From Candidatus Omnitrophota bacterium (GTDB lineage: Bacteria; Omnitrophota; Gorgyraeia; Gygaellales; UBA12090), in NCBI GenBank assembly GCA_030674475.1, contig JAUSCZ010000037.1, positions 1 to 60,805 on the forward strand: DNA of 60,805 nt, written 5' to 3'. The notes under the pieces were generated by a model. It made no database searches. It saw nothing but the letters and a program-made list of their open reading frames with translations, and had not been told where the DNA came from. This document shows positions 19,114 through 26,831 of the stretch, piece after piece; the stretch's first letter is position 1; each line of letters opens with the position of its first letter. Both the position numbers and the translations under genes were made by a program.

Positions 19114-19518
19114 CTATAAATAAGGAAGCCAGGCAATTTTAATCTCGTTTTCTACGGTTTTAAACTCTTTATCTCCCGTTATAATTTCCCCTTTATGAAG
19201 CTTTGCTAAGGCCGCGGCAAAACAGTCAGCATATGACATTTTGTGATTGGCTTTAAACCGGGCGGCTTCTTTGGCAAGCTGTATATCCACATCAATTATC
19301 TCGATAGGCAAAGTCCTGATTATTTTCTCTATTTCATGGGCTTTGTCTTGTCCGCACTCACGTAAAACAATATAGTAGACTTCCCCGAAATTTACCGATG
19401 CCATTAATAAATGCTCATCTTTTTCTACCGCCGCGACAAAAAATTGTTCAACTTTTCCATGCCCAGCCTCTTTTTCTAAGAAAACCAATAGGCCGTGCGC
19501 GTCTAAAACCCTTATCAT
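19114..19518 (-). CDS. vapC: VapC-family PIN toxin
   Basis: VLDAHGLL, VNFGEVYY, SYADCFAAALA, ITGDKEF. Confidence 0.9.
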   Translation of the reverse strand: MIRVLDAHGLLVFLEKEAGHGKVEQFFVAAVEKDEHLLMASVNFGEVYYIVLRECGQDKAHEIEKIIRTLPIEIIDVDIQLAKEAARFKANHKMSYADCFAAALAKLHKGEIITGDKEFKTVENEIKIAWLPYL

Positions 19519-19521
19519 TCG

Positions 19522-19764
19522 TTAGCCCTCTATTTTTTTATCTTTCTCTCGCTCCTCAATAAGCGCTTTTGATAGCTTTCCTTTTGTGGGCAAAACACCG
19601 GCAATTTTTTCAAAATAAGCCGGTGTAACTGCTTTAAGAATAAGTTCGTCTCCTTTTTCCTCAATATACAACTTCGTTCCTCTTTTGATATTGAGCCTGC
19701 GGCGTATTCTGGAAGGTATAACGATCTGTCCCTTGGAAGTTACAGTTGCGGTAGTCATTGCCAT
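19522..19764 (-). CDS. AbrB/MazE/SpoVT-family antitoxin
   Basis: VTSKGQIVIPSRIRRRLNIKRGTKL. Confidence 0.9.
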   Translation of the reverse strand: MAMTTATVTSKGQIVIPSRIRRRLNIKRGTKLYIEEKGDELILKAVTPAYFEKIAGVLPTKGKLSKALIEEREKDKKIEG

Positions 19765-19782
19765 CTCCCCCTTTCAACGAAA

Positions 19783-19811
19783 AGTATACCATATTCAATA
19801 TAGTATGTCAA
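19783..19811 (-). promoter_or_regulatory. Sigma70 promoter with overlapping palindromic operator
   Basis: TTGACA-17-TATACT. Imperfect palindrome ATACTATATT-G-AATATGGTAT in the spacer. Confidence 0.7.
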
Positions 19812-19903
19812 ATATTTAATTTCCTACTATATTAATAAAAACACTAACTTAAGTCACTGTATTTTCACTAACGAGACTAAGTTCATTACGACCGATTTTG
19901 GCT

Positions 19904-19993
19904 ATAAAACAAAAAACCTCCGCCAGCAAAATTATGCCGGCGAAGGTTTTAATTATTTTTTATGTGCCAGATTTGGTCCTTCTAACATAGCAC
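19904..19993 (-). ncRNA. Repeated leader/terminator element, copy 1 (putative structured RNA)
   Basis: GTGCTA..TGGCAC hairpin, A-rich linker, AAAACCTTCGCCGGC/GCTGGCGGAGGTTTT terminator. Homologous to 22363-22451 and 24191-24280. Confidence 0.6.
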
Positions 19994-20067
19994 TGTCTCA
20001 ATTGTCTACAGCATCTTATGCTATAAAATCGCGGCTCTACGAGGGTTTTTTTGGCGGCTGTAAAATT

Positions 20068-20370
20068 CTACACGCTATCCAGAAATTGTTTTATCTGGTC
20101 ATGGTTGCCGGCTAATACCGCAATGCAATTCTCGCCTTCTCGGCTTATAACTACACGGATATTTCCTTCGACGCCGGCTTCATAATAGGGCTTCCTTAAC
20201 TGTTTATAAAAAAATCGCGGGGCTATCTTTTGTGCTTCTTGTAGATTGCATCCGTTAGAGTAATAACCAGCTAAAGATTCAAGTATCAGTCCTGCTATTT
20301 TCCTTTGCTCATGACCAAGACGCTTAAGGCTTCTTTTAAAAGAAGGCCTGTAATAAAGGCGCAAAGGCAT
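20068..20370 (-). CDS. RelE/ParE-like putative toxin
   Basis: YRPSFKRSLKRL N-terminus, LAGNHDQIKQFL C-terminus. Lies downstream of an AbrB gene. Confidence 0.65.
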   Translation of the reverse strand: MPLRLYYRPSFKRSLKRLGHEQRKIAGLILESLAGYYSNGCNLQEAQKIAPRFFYKQLRKPYYEAGVEGNIRVVISREGENCIAVLAGNHDQIKQFLDSV

Positions 20371-20373
20371 TGA

Positions 20374-20631
20374 TTAGATTTCTCCTTTTTTTAGGTTAGC
20401 GATGAACCTCTTTGTCGCGCGCTTTTCTCTTCCCTTTTCCCTTGATGAAAGGGTATCTAATTTTGCGTATTCCTCATCGGTGAAATGCCTCTCCTTTGTC
20501 TCCAGAGGAATAAGCTCAATCCTCTTTTTAGAAAACTCCACCTCAAACATAGAGCCTTTTCCTAAACCCAAAACATTTGTGATCTTCTTAGGTATAGTTA
20601 TTTGATTCTTCGCTGTCATCGTAATTGTCAT
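20374..20631 (-). CDS. AbrB/MazE-family antitoxin
   Basis: MTAKNQITIPKKI...LGLGKGSMFEV. Promoter TTGACG-17-TATATT at 20653-20681. Confidence 0.85.
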   Translation of the reverse strand: MTITMTAKNQITIPKKITNVLGLGKGSMFEVEFSKKRIELIPLETKERHFTDEEYAKLDTLSSREKGREKRATKRFIANLKKGEI

Positions 20632-24800: not shown

Positions 24801-25051
24801 CAGGACATTTCTTTTATTGTTTTCCCGGCTATTTCTTTTTCCATTTTTACTCTTAGTTTTTCAAAGCTGATTTTTGCTTTTACCGGAAATGTGCCTTTGA
24901 TGTCCAGGATTGTTCCTGCCACCGGCTTTATAATTATTCTGTTTCCCTCCGGCTTAAAAAGCAGCCTGTCGTGGGTCTTCAGATGGAATTTATCCCGTAT
25001 TTCTTTAGGGATAGTTATCTGGCCCTTAGAAGTGATTGTTGAAGCAATCAT
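24800..25051 (-). CDS. AbrB/MazE-family antitoxin
   Basis: STITSKGQITIPKEIRDKFHLKTHD. Confidence 0.9.
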   Translation of the reverse strand: MIASTITSKGQITIPKEIRDKFHLKTHDRLLFKPEGNRIIIKPVAGTILDIKGTFPVKAKISFEKLRVKMEKEIAGKTIKEMS

Positions 25052-25077
25052 AGCATACCCCTCCTTACTTTTTGACT

Positions 25078-25115
25078 AATGTAAGAAATATACTATAATT
25101 CTTACATTTTGTCAA
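25078..25115 (-). promoter_or_regulatory. Sigma70 promoter with perfect 10-bp inverted-repeat operator
   Basis: TTGACA-17-TATATT. AATGTAAGAA-11 nt-TTCTTACATT. Confidence 0.75.
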
Positions 25116-25137
25116 TGGTAATCTTTATTTTTTATTA

Positions 25138-25159
25138 GCGGCATAAATGCCGCCGCTAC
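25138..25159 (-). repeat. GTAG-type REP
   Basis: GTAG-CG-GCGGCAT-TT-ATGCCGC, identical to 22522-22543 and 24351-24372. Confidence 0.8.
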
Positions 25160-25181
25160 CTGACGTATTATTGGGATTGGG

Positions 25182-26750
25182 TTACTCCTTGGCAATTTTC
25201 ATCTCTAATATCCTGTCCACCCGGAAAACCCGGTCTTCTTTACGCTGGAGGCAAAATGCCTCTAATCCCGTAAACTCCTTGTCAAGATAGGACATAGTTC
25301 CTACGCGCCGCGGCTTAATCTGACGGCGGGTTTTTTCATCGCTTGCCTTAAGATAGGTTATCTGAAGGCAGAGTTTATGGGTTATTGCCTCTTTAATCAT
25401 ACTTAGCTTATCCTCAAAAGGCATATCCCGTTCGGAAAGGGCATACTGGTGGCAGGTAACAAACCGAACTACGCGCCTGTCCATAAGGATGTCGGATTTT
25501 CTTAAGGGCCGGACAAGCGATATTCCTTCAAATGACCGGCAACGGCTTAATGCCACATAGGTCTGGCCGTGGGCAAAGGCGCCTCGGCCCATATCAATAA
25601 TCACCCGGTCAAAAGTCTTGCCCTGGCTTTTATGGATGGTAATCGCCCAGGCAAGTTTTAAGGGATACTGGGTAAAGGAACCTACGGTTTCGGCCTCAAT
25701 CATTGAGGTTTTTTCATCAAAGCTGAAATGAAATATCTCCCAGCTAAAGGGTAAGATTTCCTCAATATTCCCTTCAGCTAACCTGACAGAGACCGATTCC
25801 GCGTTTATCTCCCGGTTAAATTTTATCTGGGTAATCTCACCCAGAGAACCGTTAACCCACCTTCCCGTGGTATCATTGTTAAGCAGCATCACCTGCGCGC
25901 CAACAGCCAGGCGTAACGCGGAATCCGTGGGATAAGAATATTCCTTAAAGTCTCCCTCTATTTTCGCGCTATAGGTGTGTATCTTGGTTTTAAGCCTGTT
26001 GAGATGCTCCGCGTTAATCTCGGCGGCAGTTTTATTGGTAGTGCCCAGGTGTACTGTATAGCCGGAATTTACGCCTGCCGCGACATCCGCGCCTACCCGC
26101 CTGTTTAACAACGTTAAATCTTCATCAGTGACGGAATTGTTGCGAATGGCGTTAAGAAGTCTGATAAATTTTTCATCTTTCTGGCGGTAGATTTTTTCCA
26201 GCTCAATAAACTCCATAGGGAATTCCTGGAATACCGCCGCGTCAAAAAAATACTGGCTTTGGTAGTGGGAGCGAAAGATATCTTTTTCTCTTGAGGTTAC
26301 TACCGGAGGCAGTTGGTAGAGGTCGCCGATAAATATCATCTGGATGCCGCCAAAGGGCTGGCGGGAATCCCCGGCATTAAGCCTCAGGAATTTATCCACG
26401 CAATCAAGCAGATCCGCCCTGACCATTGATACCTCATCAATGATAACGGAGTCTATTTCCTTAAAGATGCGCCCCCTTTTGCCGCTAAGCTTCTTGATTT
26501 TTTGCAGGGTAATGTCCGGCTTAAAGCGGAAAAAGGAGTGTATAGTTTCCCCCTTTACGTTAAGGGCGGCCACTCCGGTAGGAGCCAGGACAACCACTTT
26601 CTTATCCGTATGGCTCCGGAAATAATCCAAGAGCGTGGATTTGCCGGTGCCGGCTTTTCCGGTAACAAAAACGTTCTTAGAGGTATGCTCCATTGCCTCC
26701 AGAGCTTTTTTAAACTCCGCGTTTATTTCAATATGGTTATTAGATGCCAT
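25182..26750 (-). CDS. Pif1-family SF1B helicase fused to a C-terminal WYL domain
   Basis: GKAGTGKS, LAPTGVAA, IIDEVSMV, GDLYQLPPV, QYPLKLAWAITIHKSQGKT, YVALSR. C-terminal I.Y......RRQIKP...EAFCLQRKEDRVFRVDRI (WYL pattern). Confidence 0.88.
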   Translation of the reverse strand: MASNNHIEINAEFKKALEAMEHTSKNVFVTGKAGTGKSTLLDYFRSHTDKKVVVLAPTGVAALNVKGETIHSFFRFKPDITLQKIKKLSGKRGRIFKEIDSVIIDEVSMVRADLLDCVDKFLRLNAGDSRQPFGGIQMIFIGDLYQLPPVVTSREKDIFRSHYQSQYFFDAAVFQEFPMEFIELEKIYRQKDEKFIRLLNAIRNNSVTDEDLTLLNRRVGADVAAGVNSGYTVHLGTTNKTAAEINAEHLNRLKTKIHTYSAKIEGDFKEYSYPTDSALRLAVGAQVMLLNNDTTGRWVNGSLGEITQIKFNREINAESVSVRLAEGNIEEILPFSWEIFHFSFDEKTSMIEAETVGSFTQYPLKLAWAITIHKSQGKTFDRVIIDMGRGAFAHGQTYVALSRCRSFEGISLVRPLRKSDILMDRRVVRFVTCHQYALSERDMPFEDKLSMIKEAITHKLCLQITYLKASDEKTRRQIKPRRVGTMSYLDKEFTGLEAFCLQRKEDRVFRVDRILEMKIAKE

Positions 26751-26772
26751 TTGCGTTTATAACCGGTTATTA

Positions 26773-26816
26773 GCGGCATAAATGCCTCTAATTGGTGGCA
26801 TAAATGCCACCGCTAC
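26773..26816 (-). repeat. Tandem GTAG-type REPs (one partial, one with compensatory changes)
   Basis: GTAG-CG-GTGGCAT-TT-ATGCCAC at 26795-26816. Partial copy at 26773-26786. Confidence 0.75.
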
Positions 26817-26831
26817 AATAGTTTCATAGAG

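Follow-up and report, generated by a model that had tools for sequence, protein, structure and literature searches.

A toxin-antitoxin and defence gene islet between dif and a conserved radical SAM gene in an uncultured Omnitrophota bacterium

At the terminus of the chromosome of a Candidatus Omnitrophota bacterium from groundwater, a row of small genes dominated by toxin-antitoxin (TA) pairs lies between the dif site and a radical SAM gene. The DNA analysed, referred to here as the window, is the entire 60.8-kb contig C41 (60,805 nucleotides) of the metagenome-assembled genome (MAG) G000, which comprises 2.19 Mb in 42 contigs and is 92% complete; the genes in question occupy positions 19114-26831. 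We regard this region, at a probability of roughly 0.65, as an islet of TA and defence genes in a gene-turnover hotspot at the terminus, held between dif and the last conserved core gene of this chromosome arm. The islet is of a known kind, in which TA and defence genes sit between conserved markers without genes of mobile elements, and it does not represent a new type of integron. TA islets are defined by conserved flanks, by content that varies among relatives and by the lack of mobile-element genes, and all of these features are found here.

The names under which homologues are recorded also put the genome in Omnitrophota. The window was compared with 41 related genomes (given G numbers). 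Gene families were assigned by profile scans against Pfam, NCBIfam and PADLOC-DB, structured RNAs were sought with Rfam 15, and strand counts refer to open reading frames (ORFs) of at least 70 codons from a simple ORF picker, with no gene caller. Metagenome runs were also used: X1, the probable source, X2, and X3 and X5, which derive from two other groundwater studies and whose contigs were compared with the window at 90% likeness. The unitigs of X1 cover the full array at an even depth of about 11 and are interrupted only at repeats; the order of the modules is therefore not an assembly chimera. X2 yielded only low-depth pieces, all identical to the window. Contigs of X3 and X5 come from mixed communities, and weight is placed only on two long-sided joints that were found in both studies. 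Parts of the window without cover in these two runs were not scored as absences. Weak joints, with sides shorter than 31 nt or running from one copy of the leader element described below to another, were set aside because they may originate in other leader copies or other organisms (19927 to 22388, 22466 to 24319, 24216 to 22393, 18965 to 19124, and 18397 or 18737 to 18942).

Gene content and borders of the interval

Five TA modules, an orphan HigA-like gene with an XRE-type helix-turn-helix (HTH), an ORF6N-domain gene and a Pif1-like helicase fused to a WYL domain (Pif1-WYL) make up the islet, as the original prediction had read from the sequence (Table 1). Pfam matches on both partners, with intergenic gaps of -1 to 5 nt, mark four of the five pairs, and NCBIfam agrees with Pfam for islet genes wherever it has models. 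From Pfam, PADLOC and Foldseek matches, four type II TA pairs are firmly predicted; the fifth, an AbrB antitoxin with a 100-residue partner, is a probable pair, since the partner is likened to RelE and ParE toxins by a weak fold match. Three of the genome's 20 PIN matches fall within the islet, which represents 0.35% of its length. GC content is also lower here (0.36-0.40) than in the flanks (0.43-0.47).

Each module of the islet comprises its own promoter, an antitoxin gene and a toxin gene, and usually a terminator. All five antitoxin genes have a sigma-70-like site that scores at least 10/12 and lies 30-70 nt upstream, in keeping with the claim that each pair carries its own promoter; promoter-like sites in the region as a whole number 29, which is no excess over shuffled sequences (21.1 +/- 4.8). 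Because such modules are self-contained, they would be functional wherever they landed. The separators described earlier, namely repetitive extragenic palindromic (REP) hairpins, leader repeats and gene stumps, are all present between modules. It was also correctly noted that integrase and transposase genes are lacking: no integrase, transposase or resolvase match was found on the contig, and no attC-like palindrome recurs at module ends. Elsewhere in the assembly there are 11 Y1 transposase matches and, on another contig, a single resolvase fragment.

The left border of the islet is the chromosomal dif site at the terminus. Cumulative GC skew reaches its maximum at 18-19 kb, where the gene strand flips. 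The 24-nt core of dif (at most 3 mismatches) occurs exactly once in 31 of the 41 relatives and twice in none, and a reversed control of this core gave no match in the 41. Across genera the 28-nt site is 92-97% identical, compared with 50-70% for the protein genes there. In its arm facing the radical SAM gene, 10 of the 11 positions agree with the XerD arm of E. coli. XerD (394 bits) and XerC (357 bits), both on other contigs, score above their NCBIfam cut-offs and are the sole Phage_integrase-family genes in the assembly. The earlier identification of dif is confirmed by its single copy, by the GC-skew peak and by the presence of both recombinase genes. Genes are oriented toward dif on either side, with 12 of 13 ORFs on the plus strand to the left and 41 of 45 on the minus strand to the right. 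All notable ORFs within the islet are on the minus strand, and this shared orientation, which had been presented as a trait of the array, is real and yet not specific to it, because it follows from the contig-wide replication strand bias.

The right border is conserved, with an orthologue of the radical SAM gene in all 41 genomes. It lies on one contig with dif in 18 genomes (G000 included), and in all 18 its 3' end points toward dif and the orientation of dif is constant. The gap between the two spans 0.1-14 kb: 103 nt in G004, an empty site within the family; 152 nt in G016; 1.2-1.5 kb in G032 and G028; 3.8-4.6 kb in G003, G015, G005 and G021; 6-8 kb in G002, G006, G019 and G000; and 10-14 kb in G018, G034, G010, G036, G038 and G026. 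Invariance of the interval among relatives, which would speak against a hotspot, is not what alignment shows. The range of sizes, the empty site and the differing module sets of close relatives bear out the original prediction that genes are gained and lost at this location.

In G002, which belongs to the same genus, the interval holds Pif1-WYL, two leader copies, a nucleotidyltransferase (MNT), a small ORF, a clear Cas3_HD stump (E 1.7e-11), TacA-TacT, an RNase T-like gene and, adjoining dif, an AbrB-PIN pair that is common to G000 and G002 (94% and 92% identity). In G001, Pif1-WYL is followed directly by DinJ-YafQ; this genome is without 24046-25197, hence without module 5, and keeps the DinJ-YafQ module among other neighbours. 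G006, from another genus, has Pif1-WYL, AbiL (PADLOC AbiLi/AbiLii), a phosphoesterase, a ParE pair and DUF520. G005 has no Pif1-WYL and carries Bro-N, a Phd-ParE pair and an ornithine cyclodeaminase-like gene, while G003 has TPR, AsmA-like and cyclodeaminase-like genes, with AbiE and a Y1 transposase beyond dif. The two joints found in both X3 and X5 add further arrangements. One (23277 to 25182, with 12 other letters between and sides of 88 and 95) places Pif1-WYL directly before VapB-PIN, a form without module 5, leader copy 3, DinJ-YafQ and the radical SAM stump discussed below. In the other (21740 to 22363, side 60 in both), ORF6N is absent and leader copy 2 runs into the Cas3-like stump region. 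A weaker joint in X3 (20757 to 25301, side 30) corresponds to the layout of G006, in which Pif1-WYL is followed by a 64-nt element.

These comparisons define seven breakpoints (Table 1). All but one respect gene boundaries, and the difference in G001, which trims the last Pif1-WYL codons, is deletion-like. One breakpoint falls exactly at a repeat edge, the end of a leader copy, another three are at most about 35 nt from a repeat or the stump, and three are near no repeat. The units of change are whole modules, and the cuts are not bound to one repeat class. Set against the expectation that breaks would coincide with repeats, the breakpoints follow module and gene boundaries and not any single class of repeat.

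The 64-nt element, el64, is non-coding and always lies within the radical SAM-dif interval, in three genera. In G005 it comes directly after the radical SAM gene, with 97% identity, and in G006 directly after Pif1-WYL, with 95%; on an X5 contig it has a REP on one side and a leader copy on the other. Within it are a weak promoter-like site and a hairpin that is small and AT-rich. Close by in the window, a GC-rich palindromic element at 20795-20870 has partial copies on contigs C3, C2 and C20, and relatives in X3 and X5 show loose ends within it, at 20813 and 20846. Inverted repeats of 27 nt each (20873-20899 and 21052-21078, 93% complementary) enclose 152 nt beside it. The palindrome and the neighbouring inverted repeats are probably miniature mobile elements.

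Just to the left of dif, a nuclease gene of LAGLIDADG type, whose product has an HTH at its N-terminus (17856-18701, plus strand), overlaps a small HTH gene (18694-18900, plus strand). Its single close homologue in the 41 genomes (G036, another family, 66%) is also by dif and before a small HTH gene, and the small HTH gene is present without the nuclease in G002, G004, G005 and G007. The nuclease gene is possibly of the homing type, its target lying near dif. Most other families of the order have a small gene, whose product begins M-x-P-R-G-R-P-K-K-Y-R-I-V, directly beside dif and opposite to its radical SAM side, a position taken in the window's family by the 68-codon HTH gene. Having a small DNA-binding gene beside dif may be a trait conserved in the order.

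The radical SAM end and routes of entry

Between modules 3 and 4 lies a stump that duplicates the end of the radical SAM gene (Table 1), with 79% nucleotide identity to 26839-26895. The first 21 nt of the stump are identical to the resident gene end, including a base unique to G000; the remaining 45 nt differ at about a third of positions yet encode the same residues. Its sequence marks the stump as a scar left when the radical SAM gene end was duplicated, in one event or more. No second radical SAM stump was found in G001, G002, G005 or G006. The resident gene end is itself variable. Its C-terminal residue is L in all four genomes with Pif1-WYL, and V or I in all four without it and in the stump. 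Over the last 100 nt, the gene is 74% identical between G000 and G001, compared with 93-99% upstream. Pif1-WYL adjoins the radical SAM gene in G001, G002 and G006 (88-92% identity). Over Pif1-WYL together with the 3' part of the neighbouring radical SAM gene, G000 is as similar to G006, of another genus, as to G002, of its own, with 150-nt stretches of up to 99%. At least five different sequences follow the Pif1-WYL stop, in G000, G001, G002, G006 and the X3/X5 relatives.

Taken together, the stump, the divergent gene end, the C-terminal types and the varied Pif1-WYL junctions suggest that recombination with sister or foreign DNA begins at the radical SAM/Pif1-WYL end. Insertion anchored at the radical SAM 3' end was among the mechanisms originally put forward, and the 21-nt core, the divergent last 100 nt and the different sequences after Pif1-WYL lend it partial support. 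Recombination anchored at this end is the best-supported route, yet one that we infer. A reading of Pif1-WYL as a strictly site-specific cassette was rejected, with homologues in G004 and G008 (63-72%) lying among housekeeping genes elsewhere. The helicase gene of these two genomes (L021:5443-7050; L022:6350-7768) overlaps a small upstream gene of 137-160 codons (L021:7047-7529; L022:7747-8160) that has no counterpart in the window.

In the reading that we favour, of an islet in a turnover hotspot, new DNA would be gained chiefly when related DNA from outside recombines with the chromosome, with the conserved radical SAM/Pif1-WYL flank as anchor, and shared internal sequences such as the leader copies could provide further anchors. 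The far end of the incoming DNA would join illegitimately or via a short identical core, and the 21-nt core of the stump may be one such scar. Deletions afterwards would trim the array. Modules that are low in cost, addictive or defensive would then persist, because the terminus-proximal gap is without essential genes. Their orientation would be set by selection for co-direction with replication, and not by the mechanism of insertion.

Several points weigh against this reading. No transfer or recombination event was directly observed, and contigs from MAGs and metagenomes are possibly chimeric or incomplete; with G000 at 92% completeness, an integrase could be missing. Hotspot behaviour is shown for one family only, and in other families the interval holds ordinary-looking housekeeping genes, such as LexA- and DinB-like ORFs by dif (named from translations alone). 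The stump-less form of X3 and X5, in which Pif1-WYL precedes VapB, may reflect either a deletion or an insertion that happened independently. Site-specific or Campbell-type integration accounts for a 21-nt identical core with divergence after it no less well than does one-sided joining by homology. Finally, both copies of the core share the G000-specific base, though Pif1-WYL predates G000, being present in G001, G002 and G006; the event behind the stump was therefore not simply the arrival of Pif1-WYL, an origin with which the stump-less form of X3 and X5 does not agree either.

Some of these points have a place in an alternative that we consider possible, if rather unlikely, in which integrase-less circles entered by a single site-specific or Campbell-type crossover at the radical SAM 3' core and brought a replacement gene end with them. 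The last arrival would be a 3.5-kb element running from 26875 to 23377, with the replacement end, REPs, Pif1-WYL and two TA modules, and arrivals would stack at the radical SAM end, pushing older modules toward dif. Such crossovers suit the duplicated 66 nt, which start with the identical core and then diverge while residues are kept. They also suit the L-stop end of the four Pif1-WYL genomes as against the V/I type of the stump and of the four genomes without Pif1-WYL, the last 100 nt as the part of the radical SAM gene least conserved between G000 and G001, and the number of different sequences that follow the Pif1-WYL stop. However, the recombinases in the assembly are limited to XerC, XerD, the resolvase fragment and the Y1 matches elsewhere, the search of four relatives produced no second stump, and the G000-specific base of the core is at odds with the age of Pif1-WYL. 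In addition, there is one scar only for five or more modules.

A bolder version, which we consider improbable, makes the radical SAM-dif gap a directional capture site. Circles or fragments that mimic the radical SAM 3' end would enter at the short core, with the newest modules lying there and older ones dif-ward; the phylum-wide leader would act both as a portable switch and as portable homology, and the LAGLIDADG nuclease might add breaks. If true, this would amount to integron-like polarity without an integron integrase.

The position of the islet directly beside dif, its lack of an integrase and the presence of XerC and XerD in the genome invite the idea that host recombinases stacked the modules at dif, as in arrays of integrative mobile elements exploiting Xer (IMEX) or of the pdif type. 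This is very unlikely to have happened here. With the exception of dif itself (1 mismatch), there is no site with at most 10/28 mismatches to the family consensus in 19-27 kb, where about 0.6 would be expected by chance (the background at this threshold is about 7.5 sites per 100 kb), and the dif pattern is single-copy in every relative that has it. The variable junctions are at the radical SAM/Pif1-WYL end, while the AbrB-PIN pair on the dif side is common to G000 and G002. With no second dif-like site in the region, the Xer route offered in the original prediction finds no support.

The same prediction had suggested REPs and a REP-associated tyrosine transposase (RAYT) as builders of the array, either moving modules or through REPs that serve as recombination sites. 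Five of the genome's 11 exact type-B REP cores do lie between 22.5 and 26.8 kb, REPs stand between modules, and a RAYT-like Y1 transposase ORF on contig C24 (C24:2027-2450; L046:228-650) has type-B REPs on both sides. Nevertheless, we give this explanation very little credence. The RAYT match (REP_Tyr_transpos, 64.6 bits) is under the cut-off of 80, and the family is genome-wide: 129 GTAGCGG sites bear a hairpin, mostly beside housekeeping genes and often as inverted pairs, with stem variants that preserve pairing. Type-B copies outside the islet are found beside pilus, kinase and other ordinary genes, and around the RAYT-like ORF. The presence of REPs varies independently of modules, with two between radical SAM and Pif1-WYL in G000 and G001, one in G002 and none in G006, and none of the seven breakpoints falls at a REP edge (closest approach 23 nt). 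The GTAGCGG hairpins of the islet, with stems of 7 bp, are REPs, and they are genome-wide bystanders. As separate observations, the RAYT-like ORF on C24 is unlisted in the genome-wide Pfam Y1_Tnp scan, which gave 11 other Y1 genes. The commonest REP type often has a ribosome-binding site and start codon within about 10 nt after it, for example at 12393 (plus strand), and many REPs lie immediately upstream of genes.

Lastly, it is hardly credible that the array was left by the erosion of a single larger element (for instance a prophage, an integrative element, or a CRISPR-Cas or defence island) and did not arise through serial gains: the stumps (Cas3-like and radical SAM end), the ORF6N/Rha-like and XRE genes, Bro-N in G005 and the low GC content are reminiscent of one, but structural, replication and transfer genes are lacking, relatives differ by whole modules in several independent ways, and the Cas3 stumps of G000 and G002 cannot be aligned, which points to separate histories.

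Leader RNA and individual features

The most novel part of the islet is a leader RNA motif that is absent from Rfam 15 and occurs across Omnitrophota before restriction and defence genes. The full repeat element is about 190 nt long and is present in three copies in the islet; the RNA motif covers about 100 nt of it. A covariance model, R1, was built from the three islet copies, two copies of G002 and one of G005, and in the alignment a hairpin, P1, is followed by a strong terminator. With E values up to 0.01, R1 has full-length matches in 23 of the 41 relatives. A wider sample of 151 genomes from the phylum gave such matches in 46, at E up to 1e-5; there are 1-5 copies per genome, some of them tandemly arranged. 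The motif usually stands immediately before restriction-modification or other accessory genes. Loci outside the islet include C6:17909-18035 of G000 and 20 others, L024-L043. Over 17-29 kb, the only Rfam 15 matches were to L10_leader (E 0.11, at leader copy 1) and to a microRNA (E 0.12), and we regard the two as chance matches.

Support for the predicted structure comes from 26 leader copies, in which 94.4% of cells pair, compared with 40-56% when the partner is slid, a comparison in which the alignment was fitted to the model and so favours pairing. Three of the P1 pairs alternate, GC with CG or AU with GC, and each does so in 7-13 sequences. Near-invariant parts are the P1 loop (GAAGGGG core) and the terminator base (CCUUCG paired with CGRAGG), and it is a reasonable guess from these sequences that loop GAAGG pairs with terminator CCUUC to form an antiterminator or a pseudoknot switch. 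A TTGACA-type box and an extended -10 box that end about 20 nt before P1 were recognised by eye in about 24 of 27 copies. The leader is probably a transcription attenuator. Downstream genes with an assigned family are two N6/N4 DNA methylases, an AlwI-type restriction enzyme, Vsr, NYN, EVE, SIMPL and DUF3857; a type I/MAD2-like methylase lies downstream of the C6 copy of G000, and seven other leader-downstream genes have no family. If confirmed, the leader RNA would be a new regulatory element for bacterial immunity genes.

The 100-residue protein of module 2 has no family in Pfam, NCBIfam or PADLOC and no significant sequence match in the PDB (best E 0.16). Its 374 clustered homologues are almost exactly 100 residues long, are 72-94% identical, come from Omnitrophota-type metagenomes and are labelled hypothetical, except for one 'RelE'. 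The AlphaFold model is poor (pLDDT 59.8), and its order of elements, beta-alpha-alpha-beta-beta-beta-alpha, is that of RelE/ParE toxins. RelE 3bpq_B (E 9.8e-3) heads the Foldseek matches to the model; the rest are mostly chains of RelE, HigB, ParE and YafQ, and no match has an E below 0.001. An Atlas search gave RelE/ParE/YafQ clusters as leads only (scores 0.92-0.93). Judged by this modelled fold, the family is a probable unnamed branch of RelE/ParE toxins.

Other assignments are of varied strength. NCBIfam antitoxin models score below their cut-offs on the orphan XRE gene. Within the Cas3-like stump, an ORF of 50 codons (21551-21703) matches PADLOC Cas3c weakly, at E 5.2e-4 over residues 3-42, and the adjacent frame continues into LAGLLHG, a sequence that resembles the Cas3 HD motif. 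The proposal that the Cas3-like stumps of G000 and G002 are one relic was rejected, as tblastn gave no alignment. Nor did tblastn support the idea that orf68 (23971-24177) has decayed from a copy of the small zinc-ribbon ORFs found after the leader in G002 and G005; orf68 is probably not a gene, because part of it overlaps the DinJ promoter.

Table 1. Features of the islet and its borders, and breakpoints between the window and its relatives (positions in the window)
Feature	Position	Strand	Evidence or remark
dif (11-6-11 layout), left islet border	18936-18963	+	Single copy, GC-skew peak; XerD-type arm toward radical SAM gene
TA module 1, PIN toxin	19114-19518	-	Pfam E 9.6e-17
TA module 1, AbrB/MazE antitoxin	19522-19764	-	Pfam E 3.2e-12
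TA module 1, promoter-like site	19811-19783	-	11/12 to sigma-70 consensus
Leader RNA motif, copy 1	19898-20004	-	P1 hairpin and terminator, upstream promoter degenerate; model R1, 109.7 bits; repeat family D1
TA module 2, 100-residue RelE/ParE-like protein	20068-20370	-	Weak fold match
TA module 2, AbrB/MazE antitoxin	20374-20631	-	Pfam E 1.9e-5
TA module 2, promoter-like site	20681-20653	-	10/12 to consensus
el64, conserved 64-nt non-coding element	20707-20770	.	Single copy, 3/41 genomes
Orphan XRE-type HTH gene (HigA/antitoxin-like or controller-like)	21156-21434	-	HTH_3 E 3.4e-11
Cas3-like 5' gene stump, frameshifted	21480-21703	-	PADLOC Cas3c (weak)
ORF6N-domain gene, PADLOC defence candidate PDC-S05	21810-22328	-	Pfam ORF6N E 5.8e-33; PDC-S05 E 6e-56
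Leader RNA motif, copy 2	22357-22462	-	With promoter and REP, unit 22357-22543
REP hairpin	22512-22543	-	GTAGCGG-headed
TA module 3, PIN toxin	22653-23015	-	Pfam E 1.9e-8
TA module 3, VapB antitoxin	23015-23248	-	Pfam E 2.4e-14
TA module 3, promoter-like site	23268-23240	-	10/12 to consensus
Radical SAM stump (duplicated last 66 nt of the gene)	23311-23376	-	tblastn, 86% amino acid identity to residues 296-318
TA module 4, YafQ toxin	23416-23685	-	Pfam E 3e-33; NCBIfam agrees
TA module 4, RelB/DinJ antitoxin	23691-23951	-	Pfam E 5.7e-16; NCBIfam agrees
TA module 4, promoter-like site	24026-23998	-	10/12 to consensus
Leader RNA motif, copy 3	24185-24291	-	With promoter and REP, unit 24185-24372
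REP hairpin	24341-24372	-	GTAGCGG-headed
TA module 5, PIN toxin	24399-24800	-	Pfam E 7.1e-13
TA module 5, AbrB/MazE antitoxin	24800-25051	-	Pfam E 2.2e-10
TA module 5, promoter-like site	25115-25087	-	11/12 to consensus
REP hairpin, beside TA module 5	25128-25159	-	GTAGCGG-headed
Pif1-like SF1B helicase fused to C-terminal WYL domain	25182-26750	-	PIF1 E 9.8e-31; WYL E 6.3e-9
Two tandem REP hairpins between radical SAM and Pif1-WYL	26763-26794, 26785-26816	-	GTAGCGG-headed
Radical SAM gene, right border	26832-27788	-	Pfam; last conserved core gene of this arm
Breakpoint 1	25182-25198		Pif1-WYL stop, four comparisons
Breakpoint 2	24045/46		Inside doubtful orf68, G001
Breakpoint 3	23394		YafQ terminator, G001
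Breakpoint 4	23277		9 nt before VapB -35 box
Breakpoint 5	22363		Exactly at 3' end of leader copy 2
Breakpoint 6	21740		
Breakpoint 7	19872		26 nt from leader copy 1, G002

Relation to known systems

The stump and the recurrent junction after Pif1-WYL provide a testable trace of how an islet can grow without a recombinase of its own. Furthermore, flanks that are conserved across the whole order offer an easy handle for extracting accessory genes of Omnitrophota from metagenomes.

Chromosomal integrons, of which the Vibrio superintegron is a TA-rich cassette array, share with the islet a series of small units in one orientation, which mostly consist of two genes and in many cases are TA pairs, and preferred entry at one end is possible in both. 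In contrast to integrons, the islet has no IntI and no attC, each module has a promoter, and orientation comes from replication bias. The NCBIfam model of the integron integrase scores 157 bits on XerD and 125 bits on XerC, against a cut-off of 265, so that an integron integrase is absent from the assembly. In a rough palindrome survey, the sole recurrent intergenic palindromes were the REP hairpin and the leader terminator, and Rfam gave no attC. The integron-like behaviour once proposed for the array is not upheld, given promoters in all five modules, an orientation that is the bias of the contig and the lack of recurrent attC-like palindromes.

IMEX arrays at dif include CTX, TLC and RS1 of Vibrio cholerae and the gonococcal genetic island, and pdif modules are found on Acinetobacter plasmids. 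As in the islet, DNA without an integrase lies by dif in these systems, and TA genes are a common cargo of pdif modules. The modules described here differ from them in having no flanking dif-like sites and in a variable end that is far from dif. In a limited survey of the literature, work on TA arrays at dif or the terminus consisted of Xer/IMEX and pdif studies, and no TA islet without Xer sites beside dif was described.

Closer parallels are found among defence hotspots. Those of defence islands in E. coli reportedly have fixed core flanks and variable content, like the core defence hotspots cDHS1/2 of Pseudomonas aeruginosa. The latter have fixed flanks and belong to no clear mobile-element group (PMC10250203). 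The islet shares with them fixed core flanks, variable size and content, lower GC content, no membership of a mobile element and a proposed exchange through the flanks (PMC10250203). It is much smaller, dominated by TA genes and located at the terminus, and about 10 related MAGs bear on it, and not hundreds of genomes.

The nearest match is provided by TA islets between core genes without mobile-element genes, which one study describes as small spots of high turnover, subject to erosion and spreading through homologous recombination in the core genes beside them (PMC13617665). The same study states that TA and defence systems rarely cluster (PMC13617665). Compared with the islets presented there, several type II TA pairs between conserved genes, high turnover, the lack of integrase and transposase, stumps and losses are all shared, as is the proposal that spread takes place through homologous recombination in the flanks; what sets the present islet apart is that one flank is dif, that the host is an uncultured member of Omnitrophota and that defence-type genes are part of the islet. 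TA and defence genes thus gather in a permissive, integrase-free hotspot in this little-studied, uncultured phylum, as they do in model bacteria.

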